Part shown: piece by piece, positions 6,643 to 40,643 of the stretch
Numbering within the stretch: the stretch's first letter is position 1
How the letters are laid out: each line of letters opens with the position of its first letter
Origin: an uncultured Rhodospirillaceae bacterium
GTDB lineage: Bacteria > Pseudomonadota > Alphaproteobacteria > GCA-2731375
Direction of reading: 5' to 3'
Assembly: GCA_964344935.1 (NCBI GenBank)
Contig: CAYFPL010000013.1
Location: 27,625 to 91,624 of the forward strand
DNA length: 64,000 nt
The notes under the pieces: model-generated
What the model was told of the DNA's origin: nothing
Seen by the model: the letters and a program-made list of their open reading frames with translations, nothing else
Database searches by the model: none
Position numbers and translations under genes: made by a program

Positions 6643-6648
6643 GTGGCC

Positions 6649-18229: not shown

Positions 18230-19960
18230 ATGGTGGAGGGAACACAACGTAGGCTAGCAGCCATTTTGGCCGCTGATGTTGTCGGCTATTCCAGCCTGAT
18301 GGGTGAGGACGAGGCCGGCACTTTATCTGCACTTCGATCAATGCGTACTGACTTGTTAGTACCGGCTGTCAGCGCCCATCGCGGCACCATCGTGAAAAGC
18401 ATGGGCGATGGCTGGTTGATTGCATTCGACAGTGCTGCGGAAGCGGTCAGTTGTGCGGTCGAATGGCAGGAAAAACTGTCCGAGCAAGCGTATCTGGCTG
18501 TAAGGATGGGCCTTCATATCGGCGATGTTACCTACGCTGATGGCGACGTGTACGGCGATGGCGTCAATATTGCTGCACGCCTGCAGGAAATCGCCGAGCC
18601 TGGCGCCATCGTGATTTCAGAGACGGCGAAAAGAAGCATCGATGGGCGGCTGGCAACTGATTTCAACGATCTAGGGCGGGTTGAGTTAAAGAACATCGCC
18701 GAGCCTGTCACAGCGTTCGGTTGGGGCATGTCTGCCGTCGCGGCCGACGCCGTCACGTTGCCCTTGCCCGATAAGCCCTCGATCGCAGTTCTGCCCTTCA
18801 ACAATATGTCGGGCGATCCAGAACAGGAGCACTTCGCCGACGGCATCGCCGAAGACATCATTACATCGTTATCAAAATTCCACCTATTCTTCGTGATCGC
18901 CCGTAACTCCAGTTTTACATACAAGGGCAGACCAGTTGACGCGAAGCAAGTGGGGCAGGAACTTGGTGTACGTTACATATTGGAAGGTAGCGTGCGCAAG
19001 GCCGACAATCGAATTCGGATCACATCCCAGTTAATCGAAGCTGCAACCGGGCATCAAGTTTGGGCAGAGCGCTACGACCGCGAACTCCATGACATCTTCG
19101 CTTTGCAAGACGAGATGACGGACACGATTGTCGGCGCTTTGGAACCCGAGATCGGGGCGGCGGAACGCAACCGCGCCAAGCGGAAAAGACCCGATAGCCT
19201 TGACGCCTGGGAGTTTTATCAACGGGGGCTTTGGCATCTTTGGCGAACAACGATGTCTGATTACACAGAGGCGGAAAGACTTTTTGACAGCGCAATTGAA
19301 CTGGATTCCGGGTTCGCTCCGGCCCATGCAAGCCTTTCCTATCTCAACTTTGCCAGAGTCCTGTTCGGATGGACGGACAAACCAGAAGATTGTCTCGACA
19401 ATGCTCTGCGCACCGGAAAACAGGCAGTGGCGGCGGATGAAAACGACGCTTTCGGCCATTATGCACTGGGCCGAATTCATAGCATGAGAGGTGAATTTGA
19501 TGCCGCTATTGCGGAATTGGAAAAGTCACTCGAACTCAACCCCAATCACGTACATGCGGAATTTGGTCTCGGATTTGTGCATTGTTGGCGGGGCAAACCG
19601 GAAGAGGCGCTGCCGCGCTTCGTAAAGGCAATCCGGCAAAGTCCCCGTGATCCGGCGTTCTGGACATTCGAAGGAATGATGGGGTTCGCCCATTTGCAGC
19701 TCGGCCGCTACGATGCCGCGGTCGAATGGTCGAAGAAATCCGTCCGGCATCCGAATAGTACTGTTTGGCCACAATTGAACCTTGCGCGATCGCTGGTAAG
19801 TCTCGGCCAGCTTGATCAGGCGCGCAAGGCATTGAGTGATGCACTTAAGATACAGCCAAATATTTCAGCGAAGACCATCACCATGATGTTTGGCGCGATG
19901 CACAAGGCACATCGGGACTCCTACATTGAGGCCCTCCGCCAAGTGGGCCTGCCCGATTGA
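18230..19960 (+). CDS. Class III adenylate/guanylate cyclase fused to a TolB-N-like middle domain and C-terminal TPR region (paralog 1)
   Basis: RRLAAILAADVVGYS...MGDG...GDGVNIAARL is the cyclase core, then VLPFNNMSGDPEQEHFADG and TPR-like helices. It is a paralog of the genes at 22073, 28183 and 38850. GTG start. Confidence 0.8.
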   Translation: MVEGTQRRLAAILAADVVGYSSLMGEDEAGTLSALRSMRTDLLVPAVSAHRGTIVKSMGDGWLIAFDSAAEAVSCAVEWQEKLSEQAYLAVRMGLHIGDVTYADGDVYGDGVNIAARLQEIAEPGAIVISETAKRSIDGRLATDFNDLGRVELKNIAEPVTAFGWGMSAVAADAVTLPLPDKPSIAVLPFNNMSGDPEQEHFADGIAEDIITSLSKFHLFFVIARNSSFTYKGRPVDAKQVGQELGVRYILEGSVRKADNRIRITSQLIEAATGHQVWAERYDRELHDIFALQDEMTDTIVGALEPEIGAAERNRAKRKRPDSLDAWEFYQRGLWHLWRTTMSDYTEAERLFDSAIELDSGFAPAHASLSYLNFARVLFGWTDKPEDCLDNALRTGKQAVAADENDAFGHYALGRIHSMRGEFDAAIAELEKSLELNPNHVHAEFGLGFVHCWRGKPEEALPRFVKAIRQSPRDPAFWTFEGMMGFAHLQLGRYDAAVEWSKKSVRHPNSTVWPQLNLARSLVSLGQLDQARKALSDALKIQPNISAKTITMMFGAMHKAHRDSYIEALRQVGLPD

Positions 19961-20296
19961 CCCTGACCGCAATCCTACGTGACTTGATGCCGTAACGCGG
20001 TGAGGCTTTGGGCCGCGAGATTGTCCGAGGCCCCTATGTCGACCCATGACCACCGAAACGCGCCGGAAAATGAACTGTAATGCCATCCCGGTTCTAGGAT
20101 CGCTGATTAGCGCATGCTCGAGATTGGGTGTCTTGCAGACATGGACCAAACTTAGGATTTGGTCTGTTCGGTGCCATGAGCGGTTAGGCGGTCTGACCGC
20201 GTTTCAGACGCAATGCCCCTCGGCCGACATTCGCGTTCATGGTTAACGGGCCGTTAGCAAATTCCGGTCACATTCCATAATCCATACATCCTAAGG

Positions 20297-21769
20297 GTGT
20301 CGGAAATTTGGGGTAATCCGTTCTGGAATGGGGCAATGGCACAGACAGAGCAAGCGAGCAGCGGTGTGATCGACGCTGAAGCGACCGCTGACGAGACCGG
20401 TCGGGCATTGGCCGGAGAATTGGCGGAGCGCGTGGGGGGCTTTGGAATCGAAGTCGCAGGTGTCGCCGGTAACATTGAAGACGTGGCGCAACTGGTCCAT
20501 CAACAGGCCGATCAGTTCCATGGCATGCGAGGTGATGTGCAAAAGATCATCGATGCCAACCAGCAGATCGACGGCGCCGCGCAGAACGCTCTCGAAACCG
20601 CGCGAGAATCCGCTAAGACCATGTCGCAGTCGCGGGAAACAGTCGAAAATGCGATCGAGACTATCAGGGAACTTGTTTCCGCCGTCACCGAGATATCGAG
20701 TCAGTTGGAGAACCTATCCACCTCTCTCAACCAAGTTGCCAAGGTCAGTGGCGTGATCGATGACATCGCCAGCCAAACGAACCTGTTGGCGTTAAACGCG
20801 ACCATCGAGGCCGCGAGGGCCGGCGATGCAGGCCGGGGCTTCGCGGTGGTGGCCAGCGAAGTGAAGAATCTTGCCGGCCAGACCGCCAATGCGACCACGG
20901 AAATATCGTCAACCGTGGGCGATCTGAATACAAGGGTCGATGCCCTGCAGCAGACAATGGAAGCAGCGAGCAAAAACACCGAGGCTGCCAGCACCGGCAC
21001 CAATGCGATCGGTGATATTATCGCTGAAGTCAGCGCCCGCTTGCAGCAGACCGAAGAACAGATCGGCACCATCGCCTCAGCTTCCGACGCCAACCAGAAT
21101 TCCTGCGCCGCCGTAAACCATGAATTGACTGCGATGGGCGACAGCGTCGATCACACCGCCGACAATCTGCGTCACGCCGACGATGCGGTGCAGGGTCTGT
21201 TGAACATGAACGAAGACCTGATGGAGGTGATCGCCCAGAGTGGCTGTCAAACGGTCGATACGCCCTTTGTTCAGGCCGTCACAGAATTTGCAGCACAGAT
21301 TTCGGACATCTTCGAGCAAGCCGTGAGGGAGGGCGAGATCAGCGCCGACGATCTGTTCGACAGAAACTATGAGGATATCCCGGCTACCGATCCGGCTCAG
21401 GTGATGGGCAAATTTACCGCATTCACCGATCGCGTCTTGCCGGCCATCCAGGAACCCGCCCTGGAACTGGATGAGCGGGTGGTTTTCTGCGCCGCTGTTG
21501 ATACCTTGGGCTACTTGCCGACCCACAATTCGAAGTTTTCCCGCCCCCAGGGGAACGATCCGGTCTGGAATGCTGCCAACTGTCGCAACCGGCGGATGTT
21601 CGTGGACCGCACGGGCCTAGCGGCGGCGCAAAACACCAAACCGTTTCTGCTGCAGACCTATCGGCGCGACATGGGCGGCGGCGAATTCGCAATCATGAAG
21701 GATGTCTCCGCGCCCATCGTGGTCAACGGCCGGCACTGGGGAGGTCTGCGCCTAGCCTACCGCGCCTAG
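20297..21769 (+). CDS. Soluble methyl-accepting chemotaxis protein-domain protein with uncharacterised C-terminal domain
   Basis: MCP signalling domain [32 protein letters not shown] with no TM segments. The C-terminal ~200 aa was not recognised. The start is 20297 (GTG) or 20336 (ATG). The stop abuts R2. Confidence 0.7.
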
Positions 21770-21780
21770 GCGATATTTCG

Positions 21781-21934
21781 CGCCTACACCACCTTGCACG
21801 TCCGCGGCCGGGCCCATGTGGCGGCTTTGATGGGATAGGGGCAACAGGGTGTGGGATCGGCGATCTGTATTGGCGCCAGATCTGATTCAGCCGAGCAGGT
21901 GCCCACATCCGCGTTGTGCCAAGAGCGGACTGTC
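21781..21934 (+). repeat. R2: degenerate copy of the dehydratase 3' end and downstream region
   Basis: tacaccaccttgcacgtccgcggccgggcccatgtggcggctttgatgggatag...gatctgattcagccgagcaggtgcccacatccgcgttgtgccaagagcggact aligns to R0/R1. Confidence 0.8.
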
Positions 21935-22072
21935 AAATTCTCTCAATACATGACATCTGGGCCCCAAAATCCGAAGCCGTTCGCGGCGACATGAGCCGAC
22001 AATCGGCAAAACTCGCTCAACTGGTGAAGATTAAATAATATGTCTAGTATATCCCGGTCCGGTTGAACGGAG

Positions 22073-24295
22073 ATGGAGATGGCCGAGGCAGGCGTTGAGC
22101 GGCGGCTGGCAGCAATCGTCATTGCCGATGTGGTGGGGTATTCCAGGCTCATCCGCGAAGACGAGGCGGGCACGTTGGCTCGATTTCAACGCCTGCAAAC
22201 AACGATCTTCCAACCCCGCATCGCCGAGTATGGCGACCGCGTGGTCAAGACCATGGGGGATTCCTATCTGCTTGAGTTCCCCTCTGCCGTCGCCGCCGTC
22301 GAATGCTGTACAGCCATTCAAAAGGCCATGTCCTTTCACGAAATTGAAACGCCGGAGGAAAGGCGGATCAGGTTCCGCGTTGGCATCAACCTGGGCGACA
22401 TTGTTGTCGACGGCGAGGATATTCATGGCGACGGCGTAAATGTCGCGGCGCGACTTGAAAGCATGGCCGAGCCGGGCGGCATACTGGTCTCCAACGCTGT
22501 TTACGAACAGGTGCGGGACAAACTCTCTGCTGGGTTTGAAGACAAGGGCGAGATCGAGGTCAAGAACATCGCCCGCCCCGTGCGGGTGTTCCAGGTACGG
22601 TCGACGGGACCGGCGGCAACCGTGCCGGCGGGCGAAGAGGCTGCGAAACCGCGCGGGAGAATATGGCTCGCAGCAGCCTTGGCGGTCCTGCTGATCGCCG
22701 TTGCCGGTGGCGCCTGGTGGTGGCTGCTCCGTGACGCAGCGCCGGTCGCCGCGAACCCGACAATCGCCGTCCTGCCGTTCGAAAATTTGTCCGAAGACGC
22801 CAGCCAGGCGTATTTCGCGGAAGGCATGGCGGAGGACATCATCACCGATTTGTCGAAGATCGACGGCCTGGCCGTGATTTCGCGCACCAGTTCCTTCTCG
22901 TTCAAGGGCAAGGCCGTCGACATCAAGACCATCGGCAAGGCGCTTAACGCCCGCTACGTGTTGGAGGGTTCAGTGCGCCGCGCCGGTGGCCAGCTCCGTA
23001 TCAATGCGCAGCTCATTGACGCCGCCTCCGGCGGACACCTCTGGGCCGAGCGCTACGACGGCGATGTGGGCAAGGTGTTCGCTTTTCAGGACCAGATGAC
23101 GGCGGCGATCGTCCAAGCTCTGGCAGTGACGGTGACCAAAAGCGAAGGGACGCGTCTGGCGCGCAAGAGAACGAGCAATCCGAAAGCCTACGATTTCATT
23201 CTGCGTGGACGCGCAGCGCTGTACCGGTTCAATCCAAAGAGTCTGTCCCAGGCTGTGGATTTCTATGAGCAGGCAATTGCGCTGGACCCGGATTATGCCG
23301 ATGCCCATGCCGGCCATGCGGCGGCCGCGAGTCAGATCTATCGTTACGATTGGGCCACCTCCGCATTATCGCCGGACGCGGCGCGGGAACTGGCGGAGCG
23401 TTCTATGGTGAGGGCGTTGCAGCTCGATCCGGAAAACGCCAGTGCGCTCACCACACAGGCAAATATGTTGCTGCGGACGAGTGGCAATATGAAGCGAAGC
23501 ATCGAACTCATTCGGCGGGCCATTGCGCTTGAACCCGGCAACTACCATATTCGTCGAACACTGGCATGGCGCTACGCCCAAGCAGATCGGCCCAAGGACG
23601 CACTGCGGGAACTCGATCTCGCGATGCGACTGGCCCCGCGGCCGACACCCGGCGAGGCTGCCCTCATCGGTGATACCTTGTACTACGCTGGTGATGTTCC
23701 GCGCGCGGTGGACTTTCTGGAGATGGCGCGGAAAGGGATGAAGGGCGTTGCCTGGATACGTAGGAAATTGGCAGCAGCTTATTTCGAGGCGGGGCAATTG
23801 GCCAAGGCCAATGCTGAGATCCAAGCATTGCTTGGCGTCAAGAAATGGGCGAATAGGAATGTCCGACGCGAGGCAATGTATCTTAACCATTTAGCCTCTG
23901 GTGTGCGGCAGCGCTATCTCGAATCCTTGCGCCTCGCTGGTCTGCCGGAGTGGCCAAATGGATACGAGCCGGATCTGTCCCAGCAATTGGACGGCGAAGC
24001 GATCCGCAAACTGATTTTCGGCCAGACCCGCATCGGCAGATCGAACGTAGTCGGTCCGTATGTGTCGGACATTGCCCCTAATGGCGATTTCGTGTTTCGT
24101 TTCGGTAAATCCGTCGTCAAAGGACGTTATTGGCTCGACGATGACTCAATTTGCTACAACCTTCCTCGCTGGTATGCCTCCGACAGAGGCTTTTGCGGCT
24201 TGATTCTTCGCAACCCAGACGGCAACTACGAAAAGCAAGACGAGTTCATTCACATCAATCCTAATTCCGTCGGGAAATTTTCGATCAAACGCTGA
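22073..24295 (+). CDS. Cyclase-TolB-like-TPR paralog 2, with a TM helix after the cyclase domain and an extra C-terminal domain
   Basis: Same N-terminal CYC core. RIWLAAALAVLLIAVAGGAWWWLL is a predicted TM helix, then VLPFENLSEDASQAYFAEG. The extra ~120-aa C-terminus was not recognised. Confidence 0.8.
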   Translation: MEMAEAGVERRLAAIVIADVVGYSRLIREDEAGTLARFQRLQTTIFQPRIAEYGDRVVKTMGDSYLLEFPSAVAAVECCTAIQKAMSFHEIETPEERRIRFRVGINLGDIVVDGEDIHGDGVNVAARLESMAEPGGILVSNAVYEQVRDKLSAGFEDKGEIEVKNIARPVRVFQVRSTGPAATVPAGEEAAKPRGRIWLAAALAVLLIAVAGGAWWWLLRDAAPVAANPTIAVLPFENLSEDASQAYFAEGMAEDIITDLSKIDGLAVISRTSSFSFKGKAVDIKTIGKALNARYVLEGSVRRAGGQLRINAQLIDAASGGHLWAERYDGDVGKVFAFQDQMTAAIVQALAVTVTKSEGTRLARKRTSNPKAYDFILRGRAALYRFNPKSLSQAVDFYEQAIALDPDYADAHAGHAAAASQIYRYDWATSALSPDAARELAERSMVRALQLDPENASALTTQANMLLRTSGNMKRSIELIRRAIALEPGNYHIRRTLAWRYAQADRPKDALRELDLAMRLAPRPTPGEAALIGDTLYYAGDVPRAVDFLEMARKGMKGVAWIRRKLAAAYFEAGQLAKANAEIQALLGVKKWANRNVRREAMYLNHLASGVRQRYLESLRLAGLPEWPNGYEPDLSQQLDGEAIRKLIFGQTRIGRSNVVGPYVSDIAPNGDFVFRFGKSVVKGRYWLDDDSICYNLPRWYASDRGFCGLILRNPDGNYEKQDEFIHINPNSVGKFSIKR

Positions 24296-24600
24296 GAGCT
24301 CTCAGGTCCGTTCTGGATCGTATGCCACGAGCGTTCCATGAGCACCTGCGACACATGGTGTGCGAGAGATGAAGAAGGTTTTCCCCGGGTTCGTTCGTCA
24401 CGGGCTGAATCCAAGCCATCGCAGGCGACAACTGGAGGCTTGTACTTCAATGCTTGGTGAGTACCAACTTTGAAACGGCGATGCCCGCTCCCTGTCAGAG
24501 GCCGACGTCGTTAAGCCCAAGAGGTCACCGTTCCTAATGCGGAACAAAGAGCGCGACGGGCTCGGAGAACCCTTTCAGTTCTTCTGAGCCTGCGGCCTCG
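24296..24600 (+). repeat. R2': partial or alternative-form array repeat, sharing the 5' segment of R3
   Basis: 24296-24332 resembles 27115-27160 (ctcaggtccgttctgg... against ctgaggtccgctctgg...). 24549-24598 resembles 27205-27260 (gggctcggagaaccctttcag...gcctgcggcctcgaac). Confidence 0.55.
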
Positions 24601-24849
24601 AACCGCAGGTCGGTGTTCTCGCAGGCGCGCCTGGTTTCATCGGAAGCAAAGATGCGGCGGTAGGGTGTGGCCCAGAGAACCGCAATGGCGCCGAATACAT
24701 ACCAGCCGAGTGACAGGCCATTGCTTCGATTTCGACTCGCCATTGAACCCAAATGAATTAATTCTTTCTGGGGTGCCTTTACCGGTTCAAATTTGTAGCG
24801 GTATGTGATCCCGAGAACACAACCTTGATGTAGCGAATTAGACAAGAAC

Positions 24850-27114
24850 TTGACTGGCAAAACAAAAATTGTGGAAACGACATCGGTTGCCCGCGACGAA
24901 GAGTTCGCCATAAATCAATGGCTCGCAGTCTTTCGAGACGCCAGCACCGAACACATGTACCGGCAATCGCAGTCGGCGACGGAACGGCGTAAGACAATAC
25001 TATTGGCGGTACTGCTTATCGTCGCGATGTTCTTTTTTGTTTTTGCCGCCTACACGGCCTTCGGTCTCGGTCCAGACTTCGTGCAGGCGTTGGCTATCAG
25101 AAGCATCGGATTGGCACTGAGCGTGACGCTTCTCGTAGCCGCATTCAAGCAAGCCTCCTACAAAGTCCTGGATCGAATTTTCATACTATTGGCAGGCGCC
25201 TTTGTCTTCACGACGCTGGCCTTGATGCACCATGTCGATCCAACCCGCATTACTCTGGTTATACGGACGCTGCTGTTCATATCTTTTGGCTATATGCTTC
25301 TACCCATCCCGCTGCTGCCTTTGACGATGTCTTTGTCCGCTCTAGGACTGATCGTGATGTTTCAGGTCGTCTTCTTTTTCGAATTTACCACGCCAGAACG
25401 TATCGTCCTTGTCATCTCGGCGGTTTTTGTGAATGTGATTGGCTACATCACTGCGCGATCAATGTACTGTCAGCGTCGCGAAACCTACGCCAGTCAAATC
25501 TCCCTGGAACGGGCGAACCGGGAATTGCAGGCGATCAGCGATTCCTTGAGCGGCCAAGTCGAATTGCGAGAGGGGCAACTAAGCGAGGCCGCGCGCGAGC
25601 TGCAAGGCCAGGCTGATCAGTTGCGGCTGATTGCCGATGCTATGCCGGCGTTGATCGTTTATGTGGATGCGTCGCAACGCCTGCAATTTGTGAATGAGAC
25701 GGCGGAGCAATGGCTTGCCCGGCCATCGCGCGAGCTTTTGGGCCGCGCAACGTCTGAAGTCTTCGGAGCCTCGTTATCCCACGCCGCGCGACATCAGATC
25801 GATGCGGTTTTGGCGGGGAAACCTCAATTCTTTGAAAGCGCCCAAACCTATCCCGACGGTCAAACACGGGAGGTGGCCGCGAACTATATTCCCCATTTCG
25901 ATGAAAACGGTCTGGTTCTTGGTTTCTATGCCTTGGTTGTCGACATCACCGAACGGCGTGCTTTGGAAGAGCGTCTGAGGCAGTCCGAGAAAATGGAGGC
26001 GATTGGTCATTTGACCGGCGGCATCGCGCACGAATTCAATAATTTGCTGCAGGTCGTCAACGGCAATATCTCGCTTCTGGCGGACGATATTCCAAACGAT
26101 CCGGCGTCAGTCCATCTATTTCGAGCGATCAAAAGGAACGTGGCACGCGGGGCCGAACTGACCAGTCGTCTGCTGTCGTTCGGACGCCGGCAACAGTTGG
26201 CTCCCAAGGCTTTGGTGATCGGTGATGTGCTTGCGGAGATGCAGGGCATGCTGGGGCAGACCCTGGGCGAGATGATTGAGGTCAAGGTCGCACCAGCAGT
26301 TGACGTTTGGGAGGTTGAAGCCGACCCAGGCCAGTTGGAAAACGCCCTGTTGAACCTTACCCTGAACGCCCGCGACGCCATGCCCAATGGCGGTGTCATA
26401 ACACTGTCCGCCGAAAACATCTCGTTCGACGAGGAAGCTTCGGCGGAGCATGAAGAGGCGAGGTCAGGTAGCTACGTAATGTTGAGCGTGACCGACGACG
26501 GCAGCGGCATGACGAAGGAAGCAATGAGCCGCGCGTTTGAACCGTTCTTCACCACCAAGGATGTTGGCGAAGGCACCGGGCTTGGCCTCAGCATGGTCTA
26601 TGGTTTTGCCCAACAATCAGGCGGCTTCGCCGAAATCGATAGCGTGTTGGACCAGGGCACCACCGCACGCTTGTACCTGCCCAGGCTGGTCGGAACGAAG
26701 GGCGAAGAAACGGCCCCTCAGGATGGTCCGGCTGTGACTGATTTGCCCCGCAGCGGCACCATTCTTCTGGTCGAGGATAACGCAGACGTCAGAGGGTCGC
26801 TGGCGGGCGAGCTAACCGGACTGGGCTACAAGGTGATAGAGGCCCATGACGGCGCGGCGGCCTTGGCTCGTCTGGCCGATGAGGGGCAGCTTGATTTGCT
26901 ATTCACGGATGTGGTGATGCCCGGCGGGCTAAATGGTCTTGAGTTAGCGCGTCAGGCGCTACGACTTCGGCCGCAGCTCAAGGTGCTCTATACCACTGGC
27001 TACAGTGATGAAATTATCATCGAAGCGGGGCAGCTGCCGGATGGCGCCACTGTACTACGCAAACCATTCGACAAGGTCGAACTAGCCGCCACGATTTCCC
27101 ACATTCTAAATTGA
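24850..27114 (+). CDS. Hybrid sensor histidine kinase / response regulator (membrane N-terminus, PAS, HisKA, HATPase_c, C-terminal receiver)
   Basis: HEFNNLL is an H-box and GTGLGLS a G-box. The receiver domain includes LLVEDNADVR...DLLFTDVVMPG. The exact start is uncertain. Confidence 0.85.
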   Translation: MTGKTKIVETTSVARDEEFAINQWLAVFRDASTEHMYRQSQSATERRKTILLAVLLIVAMFFFVFAAYTAFGLGPDFVQALAIRSIGLALSVTLLVAAFKQASYKVLDRIFILLAGAFVFTTLALMHHVDPTRITLVIRTLLFISFGYMLLPIPLLPLTMSLSALGLIVMFQVVFFFEFTTPERIVLVISAVFVNVIGYITARSMYCQRRETYASQISLERANRELQAISDSLSGQVELREGQLSEAARELQGQADQLRLIADAMPALIVYVDASQRLQFVNETAEQWLARPSRELLGRATSEVFGASLSHAARHQIDAVLAGKPQFFESAQTYPDGQTREVAANYIPHFDENGLVLGFYALVVDITERRALEERLRQSEKMEAIGHLTGGIAHEFNNLLQVVNGNISLLADDIPNDPASVHLFRAIKRNVARGAELTSRLLSFGRRQQLAPKALVIGDVLAEMQGMLGQTLGEMIEVKVAPAVDVWEVEADPGQLENALLNLTLNARDAMPNGGVITLSAENISFDEEASAEHEEARSGSYVMLSVTDDGSGMTKEAMSRAFEPFFTTKDVGEGTGLGLSMVYGFAQQSGGFAEIDSVLDQGTTARLYLPRLVGTKGEETAPQDGPAVTDLPRSGTILLVEDNADVRGSLAGELTGLGYKVIEAHDGAAALARLADEGQLDLLFTDVVMPGGLNGLELARQALRLRPQLKVLYTTGYSDEIIIEAGQLPDGATVLRKPFDKVELAATISHILN

Positions 27115-27425
27115 AGTCATAAGCCTCTGAGGTCCGCTCTGGGTCAAATGCCGACGCACGTGGGCTCCAGAGATCATCATTCCCAGTGCGGCACTAACAG
27201 CTCAACGGGCTCCGAGAACCCTTTTTTCAGCGCCTCAGTGCCTGCGGCATCAACATCGACGGCGAAACCTACACCGCCCAGCACGAACGCGACCGGGCGC
27301 ACGTGGCCCGGCTGATGAGAAAGCGGCGGCAGGGTGTGGGACCGCCGATCCGTAAAACAGCCGATTATTTATCCGCCGAGCGACCGGATAAGAATGCCTG
27401 CATTGTGTCATGGGCGGACATTGCC
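27115..27425 (+). repeat. R3: long form of the array repeat (5' extension + a frameshifted copy of dehydratase codons + the downstream part)
   Basis: 27247-27300 ctgcggcatcaacatcgacggcgaaacctacaccgcccagcacgaacgcgaccgggcgcacgtgg is near-identical to native 14242-14300 with a 1-nt deletion. The downstream part aligns to R0-R2. Confidence 0.85.
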
Positions 27426-27522
27426 AAAACCTGATAGACACGAAGAGTATGGAAGTCGGGTTTTGCAAAGCCGGTTAAGTGCGATCAATTCGAACCGTAA
27501 TCACCACCGAAAAGGATTCATC

Positions 27523-27942
27523 ATGGCAATTGAACTAAACCACATGATCGTCCATGCCGTGGACCAGCAAAAGTCGGCTCAGTTTTACTGCGACATTTTC
27601 GGATTAGAGTACCAAGAGTTATTTGATGGCCACTTTCTGGCGGTTCGCATAAACGGATCGCTGACGCTTGACTTTGAACGCGTCATGAACCCGCCAACTA
27701 TGAGGCAACATCTTGCATTCAAAGTCAGCGAGCCGGAATTTGATGAGATATTTGATCGGATCAGGGCGGGTAAAATTCCATACAACAGTTCGCCTGACTA
27801 TAGGGCCATGGATATGAAGGTTAATCACCACAACGGTGGGCGAGGGGTATACTTCCGAGATCTGGACGGAAATATGCTGGAAATTCTGACGGCGGACTAT
27901 GATGACAGCCAGCCCTTCGAGTACGGCATTCATGATCGTTGA
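27523..27942 (+). CDS. VOC (glyoxalase/bleomycin-resistance/dioxygenase) family protein
   Basis: MAIELNHMIVHAVDQQKSAQFYCDIFGL and YFRDLDGNMLEI are the two VOC beta-alpha-beta-beta-beta module motifs. Confidence 0.75.
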   Translation: MAIELNHMIVHAVDQQKSAQFYCDIFGLEYQELFDGHFLAVRINGSLTLDFERVMNPPTMRQHLAFKVSEPEFDEIFDRIRAGKIPYNSSPDYRAMDMKVNHHNGGRGVYFRDLDGNMLEILTADYDDSQPFEYGIHDR

Positions 27943-28182
27943 GGCCAGTCTGTGCGGCCTAGCCGCGCAAGGAATGTTGATCATTGAAAAACGAAGTGCC
28001 GCCGCGTGCATCGCCGTCAATCACTGAAAAGCCGGGGTTTGGATCGGGAACCGCGCGCTCCCAAACGGTCGCGGCAATTTCATCGGCCACCGCCGCCCTG
28101 GTTCGAAAACGGCCCCTTTGCGTCTGCCTCGCCTAGTTTTCTTTCTCGGTTGAATTAGAATGTCTCGGAAGGAGGCGTTCCA

Positions 28183-29952
28183 TTGCAGCGCGAGAATCGT
28201 AGACTGGCCGCCGTCGTTTCGGCTGATGTCGCTGGCTACAGCCGGCTCATGGGGCTTGATGAAACGGGTACGTTGCAGCGCCTGAAGGCGCACCGCGCCG
28301 AGTTGATCGATGATATGATCGGCCGGCACGGTGGCCGAATCGTCAAGACGACAGGTGATGGCCTATTGTCGGAGTTCCCCAGCGTCGTCGCCGCCGTCGA
28401 GTGCTGCCTCTCCGTGCAAGCGGGCATGGCCGAGCGTAATGCGGGTATCCCCGACAACGAGGCGATCCGCTTTCGCATCGGCGTGCATCTGGGCGACATC
28501 ATTGTTGATGGTGATGACATCTTCGGTGATGGTGTAAACATCGCGGCGCGCTTGCAGGAGATCGGCGAGGCAGGTGGTGTGACCGTGTCGGCGGTCGTAC
28601 ATGACTATCTGGATGAAGCCACCGCTGCCCGTTTCGTGGATCTGGGCGAACGGGAGTTAAAGAACATCCGTCGTGCGGTTCGAACCTGGCAATGGCGCCT
28701 GGCCGAAGCATCGCCCGTCAGCAGCGTTGATGTGTCGCAACAAGTAGCGGGTTTTGATGGCAGGCCCGCCATTGCGGTGCTGCCATTCGAGAACATGTCG
28801 GGCGATCCGGAACAGGAATACTTCGCCGATGGGATTGCCGACGACATCCTGACACGTCTTTCGATGTGGCGGTTGCTGCCTGTCATAGCGCGAAACTCAA
28901 GTTTCATTTTCAAGGGACGCAACGTCGACATTAAGGAAGTCGGCGAATTGCTGGGCGCGCGTTACGTGCTTGAAGGCAGCGTGCGCAGGGCCGGCGATCG
29001 ACTACGGATCTCGGCGCAACTCATCGATGCAGAAAGTAGCCATCACCTCTGGGCTGATCGCTTCGATGGGGCGGTCGATGATGTCTTCGAATTTCAGGAC
29101 GAGATCACCGATCTCGTGGTTGCCGCGCTGGAAGCTGTTGTCGGCAACGCGGAGCGGCAACGGGCTCGCAAACAAAATCCGAAAAACCTCGGTGCCTGGG
29201 AGCTCTGTCATCGCGGCTGCTGGCATTTGAACCGATTAAATAGGGATGACATTGTCGCCGCAGAGAAGTTGCTACAACAGGCCATCGATATAGAGCCGGA
29301 TTTCGGATACGCGCTCGGCCAATTGGCCCTGGCTAGTGTCTATAAGGTGTTTTTCGGCTGGACCGATGATGTCACCGCCGAACTGGAACTGGCCAAGGTG
29401 AAAGCTCAACAGGCACGGTCCGCAGACGAACTGGAACCGATTAGCCATACCATCCTGTCGTTTGTTCATATGTTTGCGGGCGAACACGCGGCTGCGCGCG
29501 TGGCGGCGCAAAAGGCCATCGACCTCAATCCCAGTCTGCCAATGGCTTACCATGCCATGGGCGCCGCTGTCGGTCTTGATGGAGATCCGGATGGCGGTAT
29601 CGAGCTGTTTATGCAGGGCCAAAGGCTTAGCCCGGACGATCCAAATGCACAATTCCGCCTTGGCGGCATCGCCGGACTGCATATCGCGGCAGGGCGCTAC
29701 GAACAGGCGCTGGAATATGCCGAGCGGGTAACCCAGATGGCGCCGGGCTTTCCCGTTGGGCATCTCAGAAAGGCCGTCGCCTTGGCCGAGTTGGGGCGCG
29801 GCGAGGACGCCGAAGCGGCGCTGGGGGAGTACTTGCGATTCTCGCCGAAGGCAACCGTTCAGTCGGCCCTGACGACGCTTCGGCTCAGTCGTGCCGAGGA
29901 TGTCGCGCGCTACGCCAATTCCCTGCGCAAGGCCGGCCTGCCCGAACAGTAG
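28183..29952 (+). CDS. Cyclase-TolB-like-TPR paralog 3
   Basis: RRLAAVVSADVAGYSRLMGLDETGT...VLPFENMSGDPEQEYFADG plus the TPR tail. TTG start. Confidence 0.8.
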   Translation: MQRENRRLAAVVSADVAGYSRLMGLDETGTLQRLKAHRAELIDDMIGRHGGRIVKTTGDGLLSEFPSVVAAVECCLSVQAGMAERNAGIPDNEAIRFRIGVHLGDIIVDGDDIFGDGVNIAARLQEIGEAGGVTVSAVVHDYLDEATAARFVDLGERELKNIRRAVRTWQWRLAEASPVSSVDVSQQVAGFDGRPAIAVLPFENMSGDPEQEYFADGIADDILTRLSMWRLLPVIARNSSFIFKGRNVDIKEVGELLGARYVLEGSVRRAGDRLRISAQLIDAESSHHLWADRFDGAVDDVFEFQDEITDLVVAALEAVVGNAERQRARKQNPKNLGAWELCHRGCWHLNRLNRDDIVAAEKLLQQAIDIEPDFGYALGQLALASVYKVFFGWTDDVTAELELAKVKAQQARSADELEPISHTILSFVHMFAGEHAAARVAAQKAIDLNPSLPMAYHAMGAAVGLDGDPDGGIELFMQGQRLSPDDPNAQFRLGGIAGLHIAAGRYEQALEYAERVTQMAPGFPVGHLRKAVALAELGRGEDAEAALGEYLRFSPKATVQSALTTLRLSRAEDVARYANSLRKAGLPEQ

Positions 29953-30145: not shown

Positions 30146-30232
30146 CCGAAACGCTATGGAGGCAGATTGGTCTGGGCTGAGTTGCCGCCTACGATCGCTT
30201 TGCGCCGGCAGCGCGCATCGGCTGGATGATCC

Positions 30233-31039
30233 CTACGCCGGCTTTGATGCGGTGAACGCTGCGTAGGCCATGTAACCGAAGAACGCACCCTGTTGCGCCC
30301 GCCAACGCCCCTCCGCCTTCAGGGCCTCGGCGAAATTTTCACTGATCCGGCCCTGTGCCGCCAAGGCGTCGGCACCCCGATCGATCCACGTCATGGTCAG
30401 CGCAGGCGATAAGGTTTCGACCAGGCCATAGCTTTTCAGCGGCGATACGACGAAGCCGACGTCCTGAGCCAGGGCGGTCATCCTTCGGACCAACCACTTG
30501 TCATTGACAAAGTTGTCCACGAACGCGGCCGTGCAGGCTTCCAATGGGTCGCCATCGCCGGTTTGCAGTGTCGCGGTGGAGAAATCGCCATCGCACACCC
30601 CGAGATAGCCACCGGGTTTCAGCACGCGATAGGCTTCGGCCAGATAGTCTTCGGGGCCTGGAACGTGGGTGAGCAGGGTGTGCAGAACGACGGCATCGAA
30701 TGTGCCATCGGGAAACCGCAAAGCCTTGCCGTCGCCAACCTCGTAGGTGATTCCGTCTTCATCTGCCGATAGCGACCGCGCCTTATCGATAAACACCTCA
30801 GACGGGTCAATGCCCGTTATGTTGCCTCCATTGACGATTTCGGCCAACACACGGCAGATCGGCCCCGTTCCGCATCCGACTTCCAAAACGCTCGCGCCAT
30901 CGGACAATGGAATGTCCGAAAGATAGTCCCTTGTCATTTCCTGTTGCGAGGGAATTGCGGCGCGGGTCTCCAGAACATTGGCGATGACCTCGAGCATTTC
31001 ATCCGGCGCATTGGTGATGCTGGCAAATATGTCAGGCAT
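30233..31039 (-). CDS. Class I SAM-dependent methyltransferase
   Basis: VLEVGCGTG motif I and VLKPGGYL post-I motif. The start was moved to the internal ATG. Confidence 0.7.
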   Translation of the reverse strand: MPDIFASITNAPDEMLEVIANVLETRAAIPSQQEMTRDYLSDIPLSDGASVLEVGCGTGPICRVLAEIVNGGNITGIDPSEVFIDKARSLSADEDGITYEVGDGKALRFPDGTFDAVVLHTLLTHVPGPEDYLAEAYRVLKPGGYLGVCDGDFSTATLQTGDGDPLEACTAAFVDNFVNDKWLVRRMTALAQDVGFVVSPLKSYGLVETLSPALTMTWIDRGADALAAQGRISENFAEALKAEGRWRAQQGAFFGYMAYAAFTASKPA

Positions 31040-32853: not shown

Positions 32854-33090
32854 GCCTTAAACAAAACTTGGCGCAATAGAACTGAAGTTTGGTATTTGGC
32901 TCATGCATTGAGTCATTCCCGCTATCGCAAATAACCTGATTGGGACGTTGGTAAAGGTATTGGCGGGGAGACAGTAGGAAACGTTCTCGCGGCTGCGCTT
33001 TGATTAGCGCGGCCGCTATTTTTCGGGGTGGGAAAGACCGTGCCTTGGTGCCACCATGGTTGCTCTCTATACTTCCGCGCTAATACGAAA

Positions 33091-33843
33091 ATGGCTTTCG
33101 GTCTCACCATGAATAGCCTTGTCCGTCGGATTTGGATGCGTTCCGTGCTCCACTTGGCGCTCACGTTGATGTTTGCTGTGACGCCGTACCAGGCGATAGC
33201 GACCACCGTGGAAATCGGGTCAGGGCTGCGGGTTCATGTTCCCTTGAAATCATGGCGAGCCCTGCGGGACGAGAACCTCGTCATCCAGCGCTTTGACTAT
33301 TCTTGCGGGTCCGCCGCGTTGGCAACCCTTATGCGCTATGCCCATGGCCGCACGGTCGGCGAGAAGGCGATCCTGGATACGGTCTTTCAAACGCTGCCGC
33401 GCCAAGACAGGCGTGCGCGAAAGGAGAAAGGCTTGTCCCTTTTGGACCTGCAGCGCGCGGCCGAACATTACGGTTTCCATGCCCAGGGGTTCAAGCTGCG
33501 GGCGGATCAATTGCCCAAGCTCAAGGGTCCGGTCATCGTCTTCATCAGTCCCGGCGGCTACGATCATTTCGCCGTGCTGCGCGGCGTGCGCGGCGGACGG
33601 GTCTACCTGGCGGATCCATCGTCGGGTAACGTCCGAATGCCCGCCTACCGGTTCCTCGAAAGTTGGTTGGGCAGCGATGGCAAGGGCATAATTTTTGCCA
33701 TTCAGCGCAAGGATCCTCGCAGCGATCAACCAACCAAACTCAAGCCCTTGGGCGATGGCTTGGCGCAGCCGGAAATCCTGGCAGCGCGGCAAATGCTGGC
33801 GGTCGGCAACCTGCTCACCCGCATGCCCGCGTTACGACGCTAA
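33091..33843 (+). CDS. Peptidase C39-like domain protein, stand-alone, with signal peptide (predicted periplasmic)
   Basis: QRFDYSCGSAALATLMRYAHG matches the C39 Q...C-G-x-A-A-L active-site region. Downstream HFAVLRG provides a candidate catalytic His. N-terminal hydrophobic leader. Confidence 0.6.
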   Translation: MAFGLTMNSLVRRIWMRSVLHLALTLMFAVTPYQAIATTVEIGSGLRVHVPLKSWRALRDENLVIQRFDYSCGSAALATLMRYAHGRTVGEKAILDTVFQTLPRQDRRARKEKGLSLLDLQRAAEHYGFHAQGFKLRADQLPKLKGPVIVFISPGGYDHFAVLRGVRGGRVYLADPSSGNVRMPAYRFLESWLGSDGKGIIFAIQRKDPRSDQPTKLKPLGDGLAQPEILAARQMLAVGNLLTRMPALRR

Positions 33844-33858
33844 TGGCATGTTGACGAC

Positions 33859-35187
33859 ATGAAGCGCGGCCCGAACAAACGCGCGCGTACCTGTTCTGGC
33901 GTCTTCATGGCGGCGGTATTGTGCACGCAATTGTTGTGGGGCACTCCCGTCTTTGCCGGGCAGAAGGGCGTGCGGCCAGAGGTACTTACGCTTGCCGAGA
34001 CGGCGGCGTTCCTGCGTGTGTCGGAAAACGAAATCGTAAGACTGGCCAGCTTGCGTCAACTGCCGGCCCGTAAAATTGGTGGTCAGTGGCGCTTTAGCCG
34101 GAGGGCTTTGCTGGGCTGGCTTGCCGGCAAGCCCATTTCAAGTGATGCCGGCGAAATCGAACGGCAAACCGTTGCAACGGCCCGTCCTGGCTATCCCCCG
34201 TTGTTGCCTCCCGGTTACCGCCAGCCAGTTGTCGGAGGGCGCAACAGGGAACAAATCGGCCAGGGGGCGCTGTTGACGAGTTCGCCTCAACTGGCACCCA
34301 TGGCCATGGCACAAATCAAAGGCCGTGGCACGGACGTGGCACAGGCCGCGCCGGCTTCGCGCGCACCGCCAAGCCAACCGATCGGCGAAGCCTCCAATGT
34401 AGAAACGGCAGATGACATATTTCTGCGCGATCAACGTGTGCTACTTGGTGCCGACGAAGTCACACTGGAATTCGGGCAGTTCTATGCCCACCGGGATGAA
34501 CCGACATTGACGCTGGTGGCCGGTGGCGTCGGGCTAGGGAGCCTTGAGACCGACACGTTCATCACCCAGATGGCTGCACGCTATGGGCTAACACCAAACG
34601 TCGAACTGTTCGCGAGCGTCCCGTTCTCGCACCGCACCACCAAGGTTTTCATTGGCAATTTAAAAACCAGCGAGACTGACGTTACTGAATTCGGGACAAT
34701 CAGTCTGGGCGCACGGGGGACCGTGTTGCGCGAGGGCACGGGGGTGCCGGAAATTGTGCTTACCCTACAATCCGGCATTCCGACGGGAGAGGCGTCCTAT
34801 TCCCTTGGCGGCGGCATGGCGCTGATCAAGAGCTACGACCCAGCCATTCTTTTCGCCGGTCTGAACTACACACATACCTTCAGTCGTGATTTTTCCGATG
34901 TAACCCGGCTGGAGCCGGAAGACACGGTCGATGGGTCCTTGGGATTTGCATTTGCCCTTAACGAAACATTGCTATTGAGCACTTCACTTTCGGGGATTAT
35001 CTCGGCGGCAACAGATTTCCCCGCGGCGAAATTGCGGCAGAGTGAATCCTTCAGCCTAAAGTTCGGACTGACCACACAATTGCTTCCGGGCCTCTACATC
35101 GAACCGACGGCGAGTTTCGGACTCGACGGTCCCGGCAATAGCTTCGTCCTTGGCGTCAGCGTCCCCTACAGCTTTCCCGTCAAATAG
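33859..35187 (+). CDS. Signal-peptide protein fusing an excisionase-family HTH (HTH_17-like) to a C-terminal outer-membrane beta-barrel-like domain
   Basis: LTLAETAAFLRVSENEIVRLASLRQLPARKIGGQWRFSRRALLGWL matches the HTH_17 consensus. The C-terminal ~250 aa have alternating hydrophobic beta-strand character and end in YSFPVK, typical of OM barrels. Confidence 0.5.
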   Translation: MKRGPNKRARTCSGVFMAAVLCTQLLWGTPVFAGQKGVRPEVLTLAETAAFLRVSENEIVRLASLRQLPARKIGGQWRFSRRALLGWLAGKPISSDAGEIERQTVATARPGYPPLLPPGYRQPVVGGRNREQIGQGALLTSSPQLAPMAMAQIKGRGTDVAQAAPASRAPPSQPIGEASNVETADDIFLRDQRVLLGADEVTLEFGQFYAHRDEPTLTLVAGGVGLGSLETDTFITQMAARYGLTPNVELFASVPFSHRTTKVFIGNLKTSETDVTEFGTISLGARGTVLREGTGVPEIVLTLQSGIPTGEASYSLGGGMALIKSYDPAILFAGLNYTHTFSRDFSDVTRLEPEDTVDGSLGFAFALNETLLLSTSLSGIISAATDFPAAKLRQSESFSLKFGLTTQLLPGLYIEPTASFGLDGPGNSFVLGVSVPYSFPVK

Positions 35188-38773: not shown

Positions 38774-38849
38774 TTTTGTGCGGAAAGAGACGCTGCCTTC
38801 TCCTGATCTTGAATGGATTTGCCGGGGAGCGATCGCTAATATTCATGCC

Positions 38850-40643
38850 ATGACTGACGGCACCAAACGCAAGCTGGCGGCGATCGTAAGCGCCGACGTG
38901 TCCGGTTATTCGCGCATGATGCAAGTTGACGAAGCCGGCACGCACCGCCGTCTCAAGGCCCGCTACGACGAGCTTGTCGCTCCGCAAATCGAACAGAAGG
39001 GCGGCCGCATCGTCAAGCTCATGGGCGACGGTTTGCTGGCCGAATTTCCCAGCGTGGTCAGCGCCGCGGAATGCGCATTGGAAGTTCAAATCGCCGCAGC
39101 CGCCGCCGATGCGAATGTAGATCCAGGGCGGCGCATCGAATACCGCATCGGTATCCACCTCGGCGACGTGATCGTTGATGGCGACGATATCTATGGCGAT
39201 GGCGTCAATCTGGCCGCCCGCTTGCAGGAATCCGGGGATGTGGGCGGCATCTCCCTGTCCGACGATGCTTATCGTCAGGTGCGCGGCAAGGTTGATGCTG
39301 CGTTCGTCGATGGCGGCGCGGTGTCTCTCAAGAACATCTCCGGCGATGTCCGCGTCTGGCGCTGGACGCTCGGATATGATGACGAGTCACTTCGTGGCGA
39401 GGGCATCGAAGCGGCGATTGGACCAGCGGCAACCCAGCCTCTTGCCGATAAACCTTCCCTCGCCGTGCTGCCCTTTGACAACCTTTCCGGTGATCCGGAA
39501 CAGGAATATTTCGCAGACGGGATGACGGAAGATATCATTACCGGCCTGTCTCGGTTTCGGTCGTTGTACGTGATCGCCCGCAACTCCACCTTTGCCTACA
39601 AGGGAAATTCGCCGGACGTTCGCCAGGTCGCCCGCGACTTAGGTGTTCGTTATATTCTCGAAGGCAGCGTTCGCCGGGGTGGCCAACGCATTCGCATCAA
39701 TGCGCAACTTATCGATGCCGAGGCCGGTGGTCACCAATGGGCCGAGCGTTATGATCGGGAGTTGGCCGACATATTCGCGGTTCAAGACGAGGTTACGGAA
39801 GCGATCATCGCCGCCATCGCGCCCGAAATCGACCAGGCGGAGCGCAACCGCGCACAACGCAAGCCGCCGGAAAGCTTGGATGCCTGGAGTCTGTACCAAC
39901 GTGGTCTTGCCGCCTATCACGCAACGACCAAGGACGGCTTCGAAACCGCGATCCAATTGTTCGACAGGGTTAACGACCTTGATCCCGGCTTCGCGCCGGC
40001 CTTCGCCATGGGCGCCGATGCCCGTACGCGCCTGACCATCCATTACATGCCCGGCGATACATCGCTGCTGCGCCAGGCCCAGGACAAGGCCGGCGTGGCG
40101 ACGACCCTTGATGCAAACGACGCGGATTGCTTATGGGTCGACGGGAAAGTGCAAAGCTTCCTAGGCTATCACGACGCCGCGGTCGCTAGGGGACAGGAGG
40201 CCATCACCCTCAATCCGAATTCCGCCATGGCGCATCAGGCCTTTGGTCTGATCCTGCAACGTGCGGGCCGCTCCGACGAAGCCATACGCCATATCACCCA
40301 GGCCATAGATCTAAGCCCTCGCGATTTGTTCTTGCCCGGCTTCTTGGCGCTCGGATCAAAGGCCTTGTATGACATCGGCCGCTTTCAGGATGCACTGAAT
40401 TGGGCGGGCCGCGCCAACCGTAGTCGCAATCCGCGGCCGCTGTCGTTTATCGTCGCCGCCGCCGCGTTGAGCGAACTTGGCGATCGGGATGCGGCGGTGG
40501 CTGTAGTTGCCGAGATGCTTGATCTCACGGGCCTCAAATCGGCACCGGAGCTTCGTGAGCTTCTGTTTTGGAACTGCCCCATGAGCCAAGAACGGAACGA
40601 ACAAACCATGGAGGCGTTGCGTCAGGCTGGCTTGCCAGACTAG
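38850..40643 (+). CDS. Cyclase-TolB-like-TPR paralog 4
   Basis: RKLAAIVSADVSGYSRMMQVDEAGT...VLPFDNLSGDPEQEYFADG plus the TPR tail. The start was set at the ATG at 38850. Confidence 0.8.
   Translation: MTDGTKRKLAAIVSADVSGYSRMMQVDEAGTHRRLKARYDELVAPQIEQKGGRIVKLMGDGLLAEFPSVVSAAECALEVQIAAAAADANVDPGRRIEYRIGIHLGDVIVDGDDIYGDGVNLAARLQESGDVGGISLSDDAYRQVRGKVDAAFVDGGAVSLKNISGDVRVWRWTLGYDDESLRGEGIEAAIGPAATQPLADKPSLAVLPFDNLSGDPEQEYFADGMTEDIITGLSRFRSLYVIARNSTFAYKGNSPDVRQVARDLGVRYILEGSVRRGGQRIRINAQLIDAEAGGHQWAERYDRELADIFAVQDEVTEAIIAAIAPEIDQAERNRAQRKPPESLDAWSLYQRGLAAYHATTKDGFETAIQLFDRVNDLDPGFAPAFAMGADARTRLTIHYMPGDTSLLRQAQDKAGVATTLDANDADCLWVDGKVQSFLGYHDAAVARGQEAITLNPNSAMAHQAFGLILQRAGRSDEAIRHITQAIDLSPRDLFLPGFLALGSKALYDIGRFQDALNWAGRANRSRNPRPLSFIVAAAALSELGDRDAAVAVVAEMLDLTGLKSAPELRELLFWNCPMSQERNEQTMEALRQAGLPD

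Follow-up and report, generated by a model that had tools for sequence, protein, structure and literature searches.

Four diverged cyclase genes with TolB-like and TPR domains beside a series of gene-end repeats in an uncultured marine alphaproteobacterium

This analysis concerns four paralogous genes in a 64,000-nucleotide stretch of DNA from an uncultured Rhodospirillaceae bacterium (assembly GCA_964344935.1, contig CAYFPL010000013.1, positions 27,625 to 91,624), which we refer to as the window and whose first letter is position 1. Each gene encodes a protein with an N-terminal class III nucleotide cyclase domain (CYC), a middle domain resembling the N-terminal domain of TolB (TolB-like) and a C-terminal TPR tail. 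Three of the four lie in an array of small gene blocks (modules) that are separated by copies of the 3' end of a PALP-family gene, which we call the anchor gene, and the fourth lies beyond the array. We describe the four proteins and their relationships, then the repeats and modules, and weigh how the region may have been assembled.

The four cyclase genes and their divergence

The cyclase genes of the region are the following.

14516-15829, + strand: MASE7-cyclase, a membrane adenylate cyclase (Pfam MASE7 154 bits, Guanylate_cyc 208 bits)
18230-19960, + strand: cyclase copy 1; CYC, TolB-N-like and TPR domains; in module 2; predicted soluble
22073-24295, + strand: cyclase copy 2; CYC, transmembrane (TM)-like segment, TolB-N-like and TPR domains, C-terminal extension; sole gene of module 3
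28183-29952, + strand: cyclase copy 3; CYC, TolB-N-like and TPR domains; in module 5; predicted soluble
38850-40643, + strand: cyclase copy 4; CYC, TolB-N-like and TPR domains; outside the repeat array, directly 3' of a GST gene
41226-42503, - strand: PAS-PAS-GGDEF diguanylate cyclase, outside the array (Pfam GGDEF 148 bits)

Public gene calls match the four copies at 564, 738, 589 and 597 amino acids (aa; copies 1 to 4). The call for copy 1 starts 12 codons later than the open reading frame (ORF), the TTG start of copy 3 is confirmed by its call, and for copy 4, whose ORF could start at 38778 or 38850, the 597-aa call confirms 38850. A first-pass annotation of the window had placed four + strand genes of one architecture at these positions, and this is borne out by Pfam matches to cyclase and TPR families in all of them: Guanylate_cyc (PF00211) scores 33.6, 57.0, 50.4 and 38.8 bits in copies 1 to 4 against a gathering cut-off of 21.9, and TPR_1, TPR_2, TPR_19 and related families exceed their cut-offs in every C-terminal part. 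All four can be aligned over their whole length. Pfam likewise confirms the earlier count of six nucleotide cyclases in 28 kb, which includes the MASE7-cyclase and the PAS-PAS-GGDEF protein.

The two metal-binding aspartates are kept in all four copies, as first noted, and the remaining five canonical class III residues are kept too (7/7 in every copy; D16, K56, D60, D106, N113, R117 and K154 in copy 1). The spacing is also the canonical one, with the lysine 4 residues before the second metal aspartate, an aspartate 7 residues before the asparagine, an Asn-x3-Arg pair, and the distal lysine in an xKNI motif. Residue roles, including ATP specificity for the Lys/Asp pair, were assigned from the established spacing of class III motifs. 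Because the Lys/Asp substrate pair is present in all four, ATP is the predicted substrate; we infer that the copies are enzymatically active, each being predicted to make cyclic AMP from ATP. In CyaC of Sinorhizobium meliloti, the Asn491/Arg495 pair, which has the same spacing, is said to stabilise the transition state (PMC10463352). As part of the overall explanation given below, we think it probable that the copies are homodimeric class III adenylate cyclases with an N-terminal catalytic domain.

Solved structures agree with this assignment at the level of the fold. The cyclase domain of copy 3 matches PDB 3mr7, a cyclase of Silicibacter pomeroyi, with E=2.6e-50, and Ma1120 and Rv1900c are also matched. 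An AlphaFold (AF2) model of copy 3 has a mean predicted local distance difference test score (pLDDT) of 86.6, and its cyclase domain superposes on 3mr7 and Ma1120 at a TM-score of about 0.9; normalised to the target, the TM-scores of the model against 3mr7, Ma1120, Rv1900c and CyaC are 0.7-0.92. In the structural alignments the domain is about 49% identical to 3mr7 (TM about 0.9) and about 30% identical to Ma1120 of Mycobacterium avium and Rv1900c/LipJ of Mycobacterium tuberculosis (TM about 0.9). Ma1120 has the same K/D substrate pair, and its entries describe a 'KDA to EGY' specificity mutant. The solved cyclases 3mr7, Ma1120 and Rv1900c are lone catalytic domains or are joined to other partner domains, and among the solved structures matched we found no counterpart of the TolB-like and TPR region joined to a cyclase.

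The middle motif common to the four copies, pointed out in the first pass, is confirmed: V-L-P-F-x-N-x-S...F-A-x-G is invariant, as is the longer segment VLPF-N-S...FA-G...LEGSVR, which modelled alone reaches a pLDDT of 86.9. The TolB-like label given to it is right at the level of the fold. A Foldseek search with the middle-domain model retrieves the TolB N-terminal domain, PelC, LpoB and FlgT with E about 1e-7 and a query TM-score (TMq) of 0.5-0.65, the TolB entries themselves having E 1e-7 to 1e-5 and TMq 0.60-0.65. The fold is thus that of the group comprising TolB, PelC, the LpoB C-domain, FlgT and GNA1162, with a sequence identity to the middle domain of only 12-20%. Among sequence profiles, Pfam TolB_N (PF04052/COG5616) matches only copy 2, and below threshold (20.9 bits, cut-off 22.4); the FlgO profile also matches copy 2 below threshold (18.7 bits, cut-off 22.6). 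The relatives of this fold are all periplasmic or associated with the outer membrane, whereas copies 1, 3 and 4 have neither a signal peptide nor a TM segment and are predicted to be cytosolic. The C-terminal part forms an all-helical superhelix in the model of copy 3 (16 helices over residues 336-584). The TolB-like and TPR domains would together presumably be a regulatory, partner-binding or ligand-binding region.

Copy 2 belongs to a distinct, receptor-type subfamily. It has a TM-like segment at residues 197-215, between the cyclase and the TolB-like domain, with a hydropathy of 2.24 compared with 1.3-1.5 or less in copies 1, 3 and 4, and a C-terminal extension of ~150 aa (residues ~590-740) that has no Pfam match and is conserved over its full length in a subfamily of proteins 738-745 aa long, at 40-43% identity. 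Such a protein would be membrane-anchored, with its TolB-like and TPR part outside the cytoplasm.

The four copies are more diverged than they had been judged by eye. Full-length protein identity between pairs is 33-43%, and the 45-55% first given fits only the CYC (44-54%) and TolB-like (50-66%) domains, the TPR part being 21-31% identical. Codon-aligned DNA identity is 47-51%, and the third codon positions, at 31-35%, are saturated. The nearest homolog outside the window is 59% identical for copy 1, 80% for copy 3 and 59-60% for copy 4; the 42% obtained for copy 2 comes from a library clustered at 50%, which could hide closer relatives. In a neighbour-joining tree of the four copies and 56 outside sequences (100 bootstraps), every copy groups with outside sequences in a separate clade in 100/100 replicates, and a sister pair among the four appears in 0/100. 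The outside sequences were the best matches of each copy, which makes the four-clade shape partly a product of construction; the existence of closer outside relatives of each copy does not depend on how the sequences were chosen.

Since each copy has its own outside clade and no two are sisters, recent local duplication of the four is ruled out, and the identity matrix, the bootstrap values and the saturation of third positions when set against the identity of the repeats described below all speak against it. This is a clear negative result on the origin of the cluster. The tight lineage-specific clade, which the first-pass annotation had named as the outcome that would speak for local duplication, is not seen in the tree, and its view of the copies as old paralogs stands. 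Within the explanation we prefer for the whole locus, we lean towards regarding the four as anciently separated subfamilies. Deep paralogy by itself does not prove that each copy arrived horizontally.

In their family the four genes are ordinary members. The family is very common and routinely multi-copy in alphaproteobacteria: of the 160,366 cluster representatives that a HMMER scan returned at E<=1e-3, 37,334 also reached E<=1e-30, and tblastn found the architecture on 495 plasmid records, mostly rhizobial, at up to 11 places per record, the plasmid-borne rhizobial copies being about 41-42% identical to those of the window. Rhizobial and other alphaproteobacterial TPR-tailed cyclases have the same three-part architecture in ~580-600 aa, or ~740 aa for the type of copy 2. 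Database relatives number in the thousands at 40-60% identity and are called 'adenylate/guanylate cyclase domain-containing protein' at NCBI and 'TolB-like protein/class 3 adenylate cyclase/TPR' at JGI. Class III adenylate cyclases number 26 in S. meliloti and up to 32 in Bradyrhizobium japonicum, and most are of unknown function (PMC4222275). Of the characterised S. meliloti cyclases, CyaC with its six TM segments and CyaD1, CyaD2 and CyaK with their CHASE2 domains do not have the TolB-like and TPR architecture. The four genes therefore add to a very large and experimentally neglected family and are nothing new in kind. Four copies in 22 kb is denser than in the three other genomes whose homolog contexts were examined, where the homologs are single and in unrelated surroundings, one adjoining insertion sequence (IS) elements and another type of cyclase. 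In that genome (locus L163, 10001-18301) a homolog 53% identical to copy 1 stands beside IS transposases (rve, DDE_Tnp_1) and a gene of a different cyclase architecture (SAM, CYC, AAA_16, TPR), and cyclase genes therefore gather in variable regions elsewhere too.

Gene-end repeats and the modules between them

The anchor gene, the repeats (r1 to r6) and the genes of the array, apart from copies 1 and 3 already listed, are arranged as follows; E values are from nhmmer.

13295-14317, + strand: PALP anchor gene, intact, encoding a threonine/serine dehydratase-like protein dependent on pyridoxal phosphate (Pfam PALP 230 bits; 0.87 G+C at third codon positions, GC3)
14236-14411, + strand: r1, the reference copy, last 82 nt of the PALP gene and ~94 nt 3' of it (E=2.7e-52)
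14516-15829, + strand: module 1, the MASE7-cyclase, between r1 and r2
15837-15978, + strand: r2 (E=1.4e-46), 75% identical to r1 over 143 nt; translates as ...HVAALME and a stop
16024-16857, + strand: module 2, DUF1194 protein (Pfam)
17219-17989, + strand: module 2, short-chain dehydrogenase (SDR; Pfam)
20297-21769, + strand: module 2, last gene, methyl-accepting chemotaxis protein (MCP; Pfam MCPsignal 120 bits)
21783-21930, + strand: r3 (E=2.8e-48); translates as YTTLHVRGRAHVAALMG and a stop
22073-24295, + strand: module 3, cyclase copy 2 alone, between r3 and r6
24480-24733, + strand: decayed copy r6 (itself ~24590-24733) with segment D9 on its left; partial match at 24654-24726 (E=1.9e-6) and alignment of r6 with r4
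24850-27114, + strand: module 4, hybrid histidine kinase (PAS, HisKA, HATPase, REC; Pfam)
27129-27224 and 27242-27422, + strand: segment D9 and r4 (E=3.4e-48), 86% identical to r1 over 111 nt
27523-27942, + strand: module 5, first gene, glyoxalase-family protein (Pfam; gene call in ENA contigs)
30049-30222, + strand: r5, the last copy (E=1.8e-44), 79% identical to r1 over 81 nt; a convergent methyltransferase gene comes next

The ~176-nt repeat unit combines the final ~80 nt of the PALP gene with ~95 nt downstream of it. The anchor gene is complete, as its orthologs at 78-83% identity align over residues 1-339; NCBIfam dehydratase families match it below their cut-offs. The nhmmer search gives five full repeat copies and one decayed copy, all on the + strand, and a 29-nt degenerate pattern of the repeat core has 5 matches against 0 expected by chance. 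Each of the six co-oriented copies lies just past the stop codon of a gene: r2 starts 8 nt past that of the MASE7-cyclase, and reading the sequence places the stop codon of the MCP gene within the left edge of r3. The left boundary CTGCGGC (14236) is common to r4, r5 and r6, and r1 to r4 have a common right boundary near 14411. Outside the set we found no further copy by nhmmer elsewhere in the 64 kb and none in the intergenic regions beyond 30.2 kb, and no decayed repeat above shuffled background around copy 4 or within module 2.

The copies other than r1 can be read in the PALP frame as C-termini, with 55-80 nt of recognisable coding sequence and a stop codon. The coding part of the repeat is 64-86% identical between copies and the non-coding part 52-72%; r4 is the copy nearest to r1 in sequence. 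Over the last 11 codons all three changes between r3 and r1 are synonymous, and r3 has TTLH as in the genes of relatives; r3 therefore resembles the end of a different functional PALP allele and does not look like a neutrally decayed r1. With 52-86% identity the repeats remain well short of the saturation reached by the cyclase genes; they are therefore much younger than the split of the cyclase paralogs, and co-duplication of repeat and gene is ruled out. An extra segment of ~96 nt, D9, is found on the left of r6 (24480-24575) and r4 (27129-27224) only, the two being 73% identical, which suggests that the module of cyclase copy 2 and that of the histidine kinase ended in a common sequence.

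Several identities of the repeat were tried and rejected. It is not an integron attC site: the alignment has no conserved GTTRRRY/RYYYAAC ends or R''/R' cores, and the consensus fold gives no end-to-end hairpin. A structured RNA is ruled out, there being no Rfam match at gathering score in the whole window, no conserved secondary structure in the repeat and an unfavourable covariation term in RNAalifold. A promoter or terminator role was likewise dropped, as consensus scans gave fewer sites in the repeat than in shuffled sequence.

The modules, of which there are five or six, are 1.4-5.8 kb in size, and the array takes up the first 16 kb of the region. All nine of its genes (9/9) are co-oriented with the PALP gene, and each repeat lies 46-143 nt 5' of the first gene of the next module. 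Between 14516 and 29952, 6/9 genes belong to signal transduction (the MASE7-cyclase, the three cyclase-TPR genes, the MCP and the hybrid kinase), with at least one in each module. As the first-pass annotation had it, copies 1 to 3 lie between repeats and copy 4 does not. Its description of the cargo as one of cyclic nucleotide signalling was too narrow, since the modules also hold the MCP, hybrid histidine kinase, DUF1194, SDR and glyoxalase genes, and copy 4 and the GGDEF gene cannot be counted in a flanked cargo, both being outside the array.

Composition changes at the first repeat. The 14 genes upstream have GC3 of 0.73-0.87 and those from the first module on 0.56-0.75, with a step that coincides with r1 (0.87, then 0.75, then 0.59-0.70). 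Copy 1, at 0.59, is the lowest of the four cyclases. In the codon usage check proposed in the first pass, GC3 steps down exactly at r1 and stays low to about 47.7 kb.

The order of the array was reproduced in independent contigs. Contigs in ENA and Logan, derived from two runs of a single project, cover 14738-30601 at 99.97-100% identity, in the same order and spanning r2, r3, r6, r4 and r5, and the array is therefore not an artefact of one assembly. One ENA contig of 2.9 kb (L166, from ERZ930061) corresponds to 21737-24634 and so begins at the left edge of r3 and ends in r6, exactly module 3, while other contigs of its project break inside genes; this is a weak hint of heterogeneity at the junctions in the population.

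Other loci with relatives of the anchor gene were searched for a similar arrangement. No second array was found among 80 genome and 80 metagenome loci, each having only the native gene end, and the core pattern was absent from the viral contigs searched. Ten PALP orthologs (78-83% identity) come from marine metagenome-assembled genomes (MAGs) with the label Rhodospirillaceae or Alphaproteobacteria. The gene end occurs once in each of them and is followed by no array; they share no synteny with the window and hence provide no empty site. We found no intI gene, the genes 5' of the array being PALP, GFA-like and WYL-HTH genes. The MAG contigs L001 and L061, both from relatives, have a zinc-dependent alcohol dehydrogenase gene directly 5' of PALP, L061 also having an aminotransferase gene there. 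The corresponding part of the window, 2016-4261, is separated by about 10 kb (4277-13283) from PALP at 13295, and the region upstream of the anchor gene has therefore also been rearranged or expanded.

Possible origins of the array

For the locus as a whole we hold, with moderate confidence, that four old members of the cyclase family lie in an island built by serial insertion at the end of the PALP gene. The first 16 kb would have been assembled as small blocks of genes entered one after another at this gene's 3' end, each insertion displacing the previous gene end and leaving its last ~80 nt and ~95 nt downstream as a scar. The outcome would be an array of modules without recombinase genes, bounded by attachment (att)-type scars, like the tandem accretion of decayed, cis-mobilisable integrative elements (CIMEs) or the partial-tRNA scars of tycheposon islands. 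A flexible, compositionally distinct region would then begin exactly at the PALP stop codon, and its genes would be neighbours by location and not by duplication. The GC3 step at r1 and the gene-end repeats fit such serial insertion, the mechanism of which, including the recombinase that acted, we infer, and we regard the reading of these blocks as mobile as plausible. The first-pass proposal of co-mobilised, att-flanked cyclic nucleotide genes therefore stands in part: direct repeats resembling displaced att-type scars surround copies 1 to 3 and GC3 steps at r1, but the 64 kb hold no integrase, excisionase, tRNA or attC-like structure, and co-mobilisation is still a conjecture.

There are precedents for serial integration that leaves partial copies of the target and for elements without a recombinase (10.1101/2020.12.28.424599; PMC5704250). 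In the tandem accretion and CIMEs of the ICESt1/ICESt3 type (PMC5704250), as here, blocks without integration genes stand in tandem at one site, the target gene remains intact, and direct repeats that include its 3' end flank each block. The present array differs in having no functional element or integrase in the 64 kb, in its much smaller modules (1.4-5.8 kb), and in a longer repeat (~176 nt) with strongly diverged copies. The islands of Prochlorococcus, in which successive tycheposon integrations leave scattered partial tRNAs and push older cargo inward (10.1101/2020.12.28.424599), likewise have a marine host, start at a fixed anchor and contain partial copies of the target at scattered places, but the anchor here is a protein-coding gene and not a tRNA or tmRNA, no tyrosine recombinase or fragment of one was found, and the host is an alphaproteobacterium. 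A string of displaced gene ends without a nearby recombinase would thus record a flexible island built blockwise beside a protein-coding anchor in an uncultured marine alphaproteobacterium. If the repeats are active recombination sites, they would form a compact system by which sensory modules are naturally exchanged; if they are inactive, they are the fossil trace of earlier integrations, of a type already known.

A number of results weigh against serial insertion. Pfam and NCBIfam searches of the ~70 ORFs of the window found no integrase, tyrosine or serine recombinase, excisionase or transposase, and the 64 kb contain no tRNA or tmRNA. For an att site, a length of ~176 nt is large. Copies farther from the PALP gene are not less similar to r1, contrary to the prediction of a simple model with the newest insertion nearest to that gene. 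The low-GC3 stretch runs past the last repeat to about 47.7 kb, so that the composition is not specific to the array, and the core composition was taken from only 14 genes of the same window. We found neither an empty site nor a different order of modules, and the contigs of the two metagenome runs agree in their order. The only close ortholog of a cargo gene, a protein 80% identical to copy 3 (P0122), shares with the window only 28133-29977, in effect the gene itself, and is set among unrelated neighbours, with no repeat and no module partner at its locus. With respect to the cyclases themselves, the predicted cytosolic placement is at odds with a fold otherwise known from envelope proteins, and a literature search found no experimental study of the CYC-TolB-like-TPR architecture.

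Some of these results would suit an ordinary, vertically inherited signalling cluster, in which the repeats are a local intergenic family, regulatory or resembling repetitive extragenic palindromic (REP) or miniature inverted-repeat transposable elements (MITEs), that has caught the tail of PALP. In its favour, the window has no recombinase, both metagenome runs show one and the same array, the repeats, standing 46-143 nt 5' of the next module's first gene, could conceivably act as a common promoter or operator, and the divergence of the copy 3 ortholog (80%) is about that of the PALP relatives (78-83%), which is compatible with vertical descent. We consider it unlikely, because the repeats carry 55-80 nt of coding sequence in the PALP frame together with its stop codon, the copies differ partly along synonymous sites and in line with the alleles of relatives, as displaced gene ends would but a regulatory element would not, three copies share a left boundary inside the coding sequence, and no others occur in the 64 kb; nor does the repeat have conserved structure or promoter or terminator enrichment, and the GC3 step falls exactly at r1. 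Even less of our confidence goes to a platform for recruiting cassettes that would work like an integron with none of its parts, co-oriented promoterless modules being stacked at the PALP end by a recombinase encoded elsewhere in the genome, with the ~176-nt gene-end repeat as the recombination site. Integron cassette arrays, including clusters of attC sites lacking integrases (CALINs), are likewise made mostly of small co-oriented cassettes with a repeated site 3' of each, and here all nine genes are co-oriented with the anchor, every module has a repeat immediately 3' of its final ORF, three of the modules consist of one gene, a signal-transduction gene is present in every module (6/9 genes), and the L166 contig begins and ends on the repeats flanking module 3. 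The array differs from an integron in having no intI-like gene and, in place of an attC hairpin, a repeat made of a gene-end remnant with neither R''/R' cores nor a conserved imperfect hairpin; modules 2 and 5 have four and two genes, no second example was found in the 160 PALP loci or, by the core pattern, in viral contigs, and the co-orientation also reflects a local strand bias, most genes from 14 to 40 kb being on the + strand where GC skew is positive. If it were true, the platform would be previously undescribed, and its cargo here would consist almost wholly of genes for sensing and signal output, namely four adenylate cyclases, one MCP and one hybrid kinase.

Two further possibilities are very improbable in our judgement. 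Local tandem duplication of the PALP 3' end with a cyclase block, followed by divergence, would account for direct repeats separating modules that carry cyclases, but the four copies never group (0/100 bootstraps), each has closer homologs in other organisms, their third positions are saturated (31-35%) against repeats still 52-86% identical, and the modules differ in gene content. An assembly or binning chimera, in which similar repeats mis-joined unrelated fragments, comes to mind since the source is probably a metagenome-assembled contig; the repeats, however, are only 64-88% identical, too diverged to confuse an assembler, and the independent ENA and Logan contigs of two runs span r2, r3, r6, r4 and r5 at 99.97-100%.

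Other features of the window

A 27-nt inverted repeat with 93% complementarity and a spacer of 34 nt lies 5' of the anchor gene, at 11170-11257, between convergent SnoaL-like and GST-like genes. Each arm is itself a GC-rich hairpin, and the element is probably a bidirectional terminator or REP-like.

Between the array and copy 4, at 33028-35187, a C39 peptidase gene (FapD/FilB-like) adjoins a gene whose product has a C-terminal part resembling the FapF/FilC outer-membrane barrel and also an N-terminal HTH_17/excisionase-like segment, with no NCBIfam match reaching its cut-off. The two genes may be a fragment of a system that exports amyloid or pili.

Beyond the GGDEF gene, positions 42723-42894 and 46401-46573 form a direct repeat of ~170 nt (~85% identical) that corresponds to a small coiled-coil ORF (42579-42887, + strand) and brackets a minus-strand ABC-3/ZnuA/442-aa cluster. 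A Zur-box-like palindrome, GTTATGTTATAACATAA, is located just 5' of the second repeat copy. Further on, at 51395-52447, a 350-aa ORF with two Ectoine_synth/cupin matches, an unusual protein like a doubled ectoine synthase, adjoins an aconitase-family gene.

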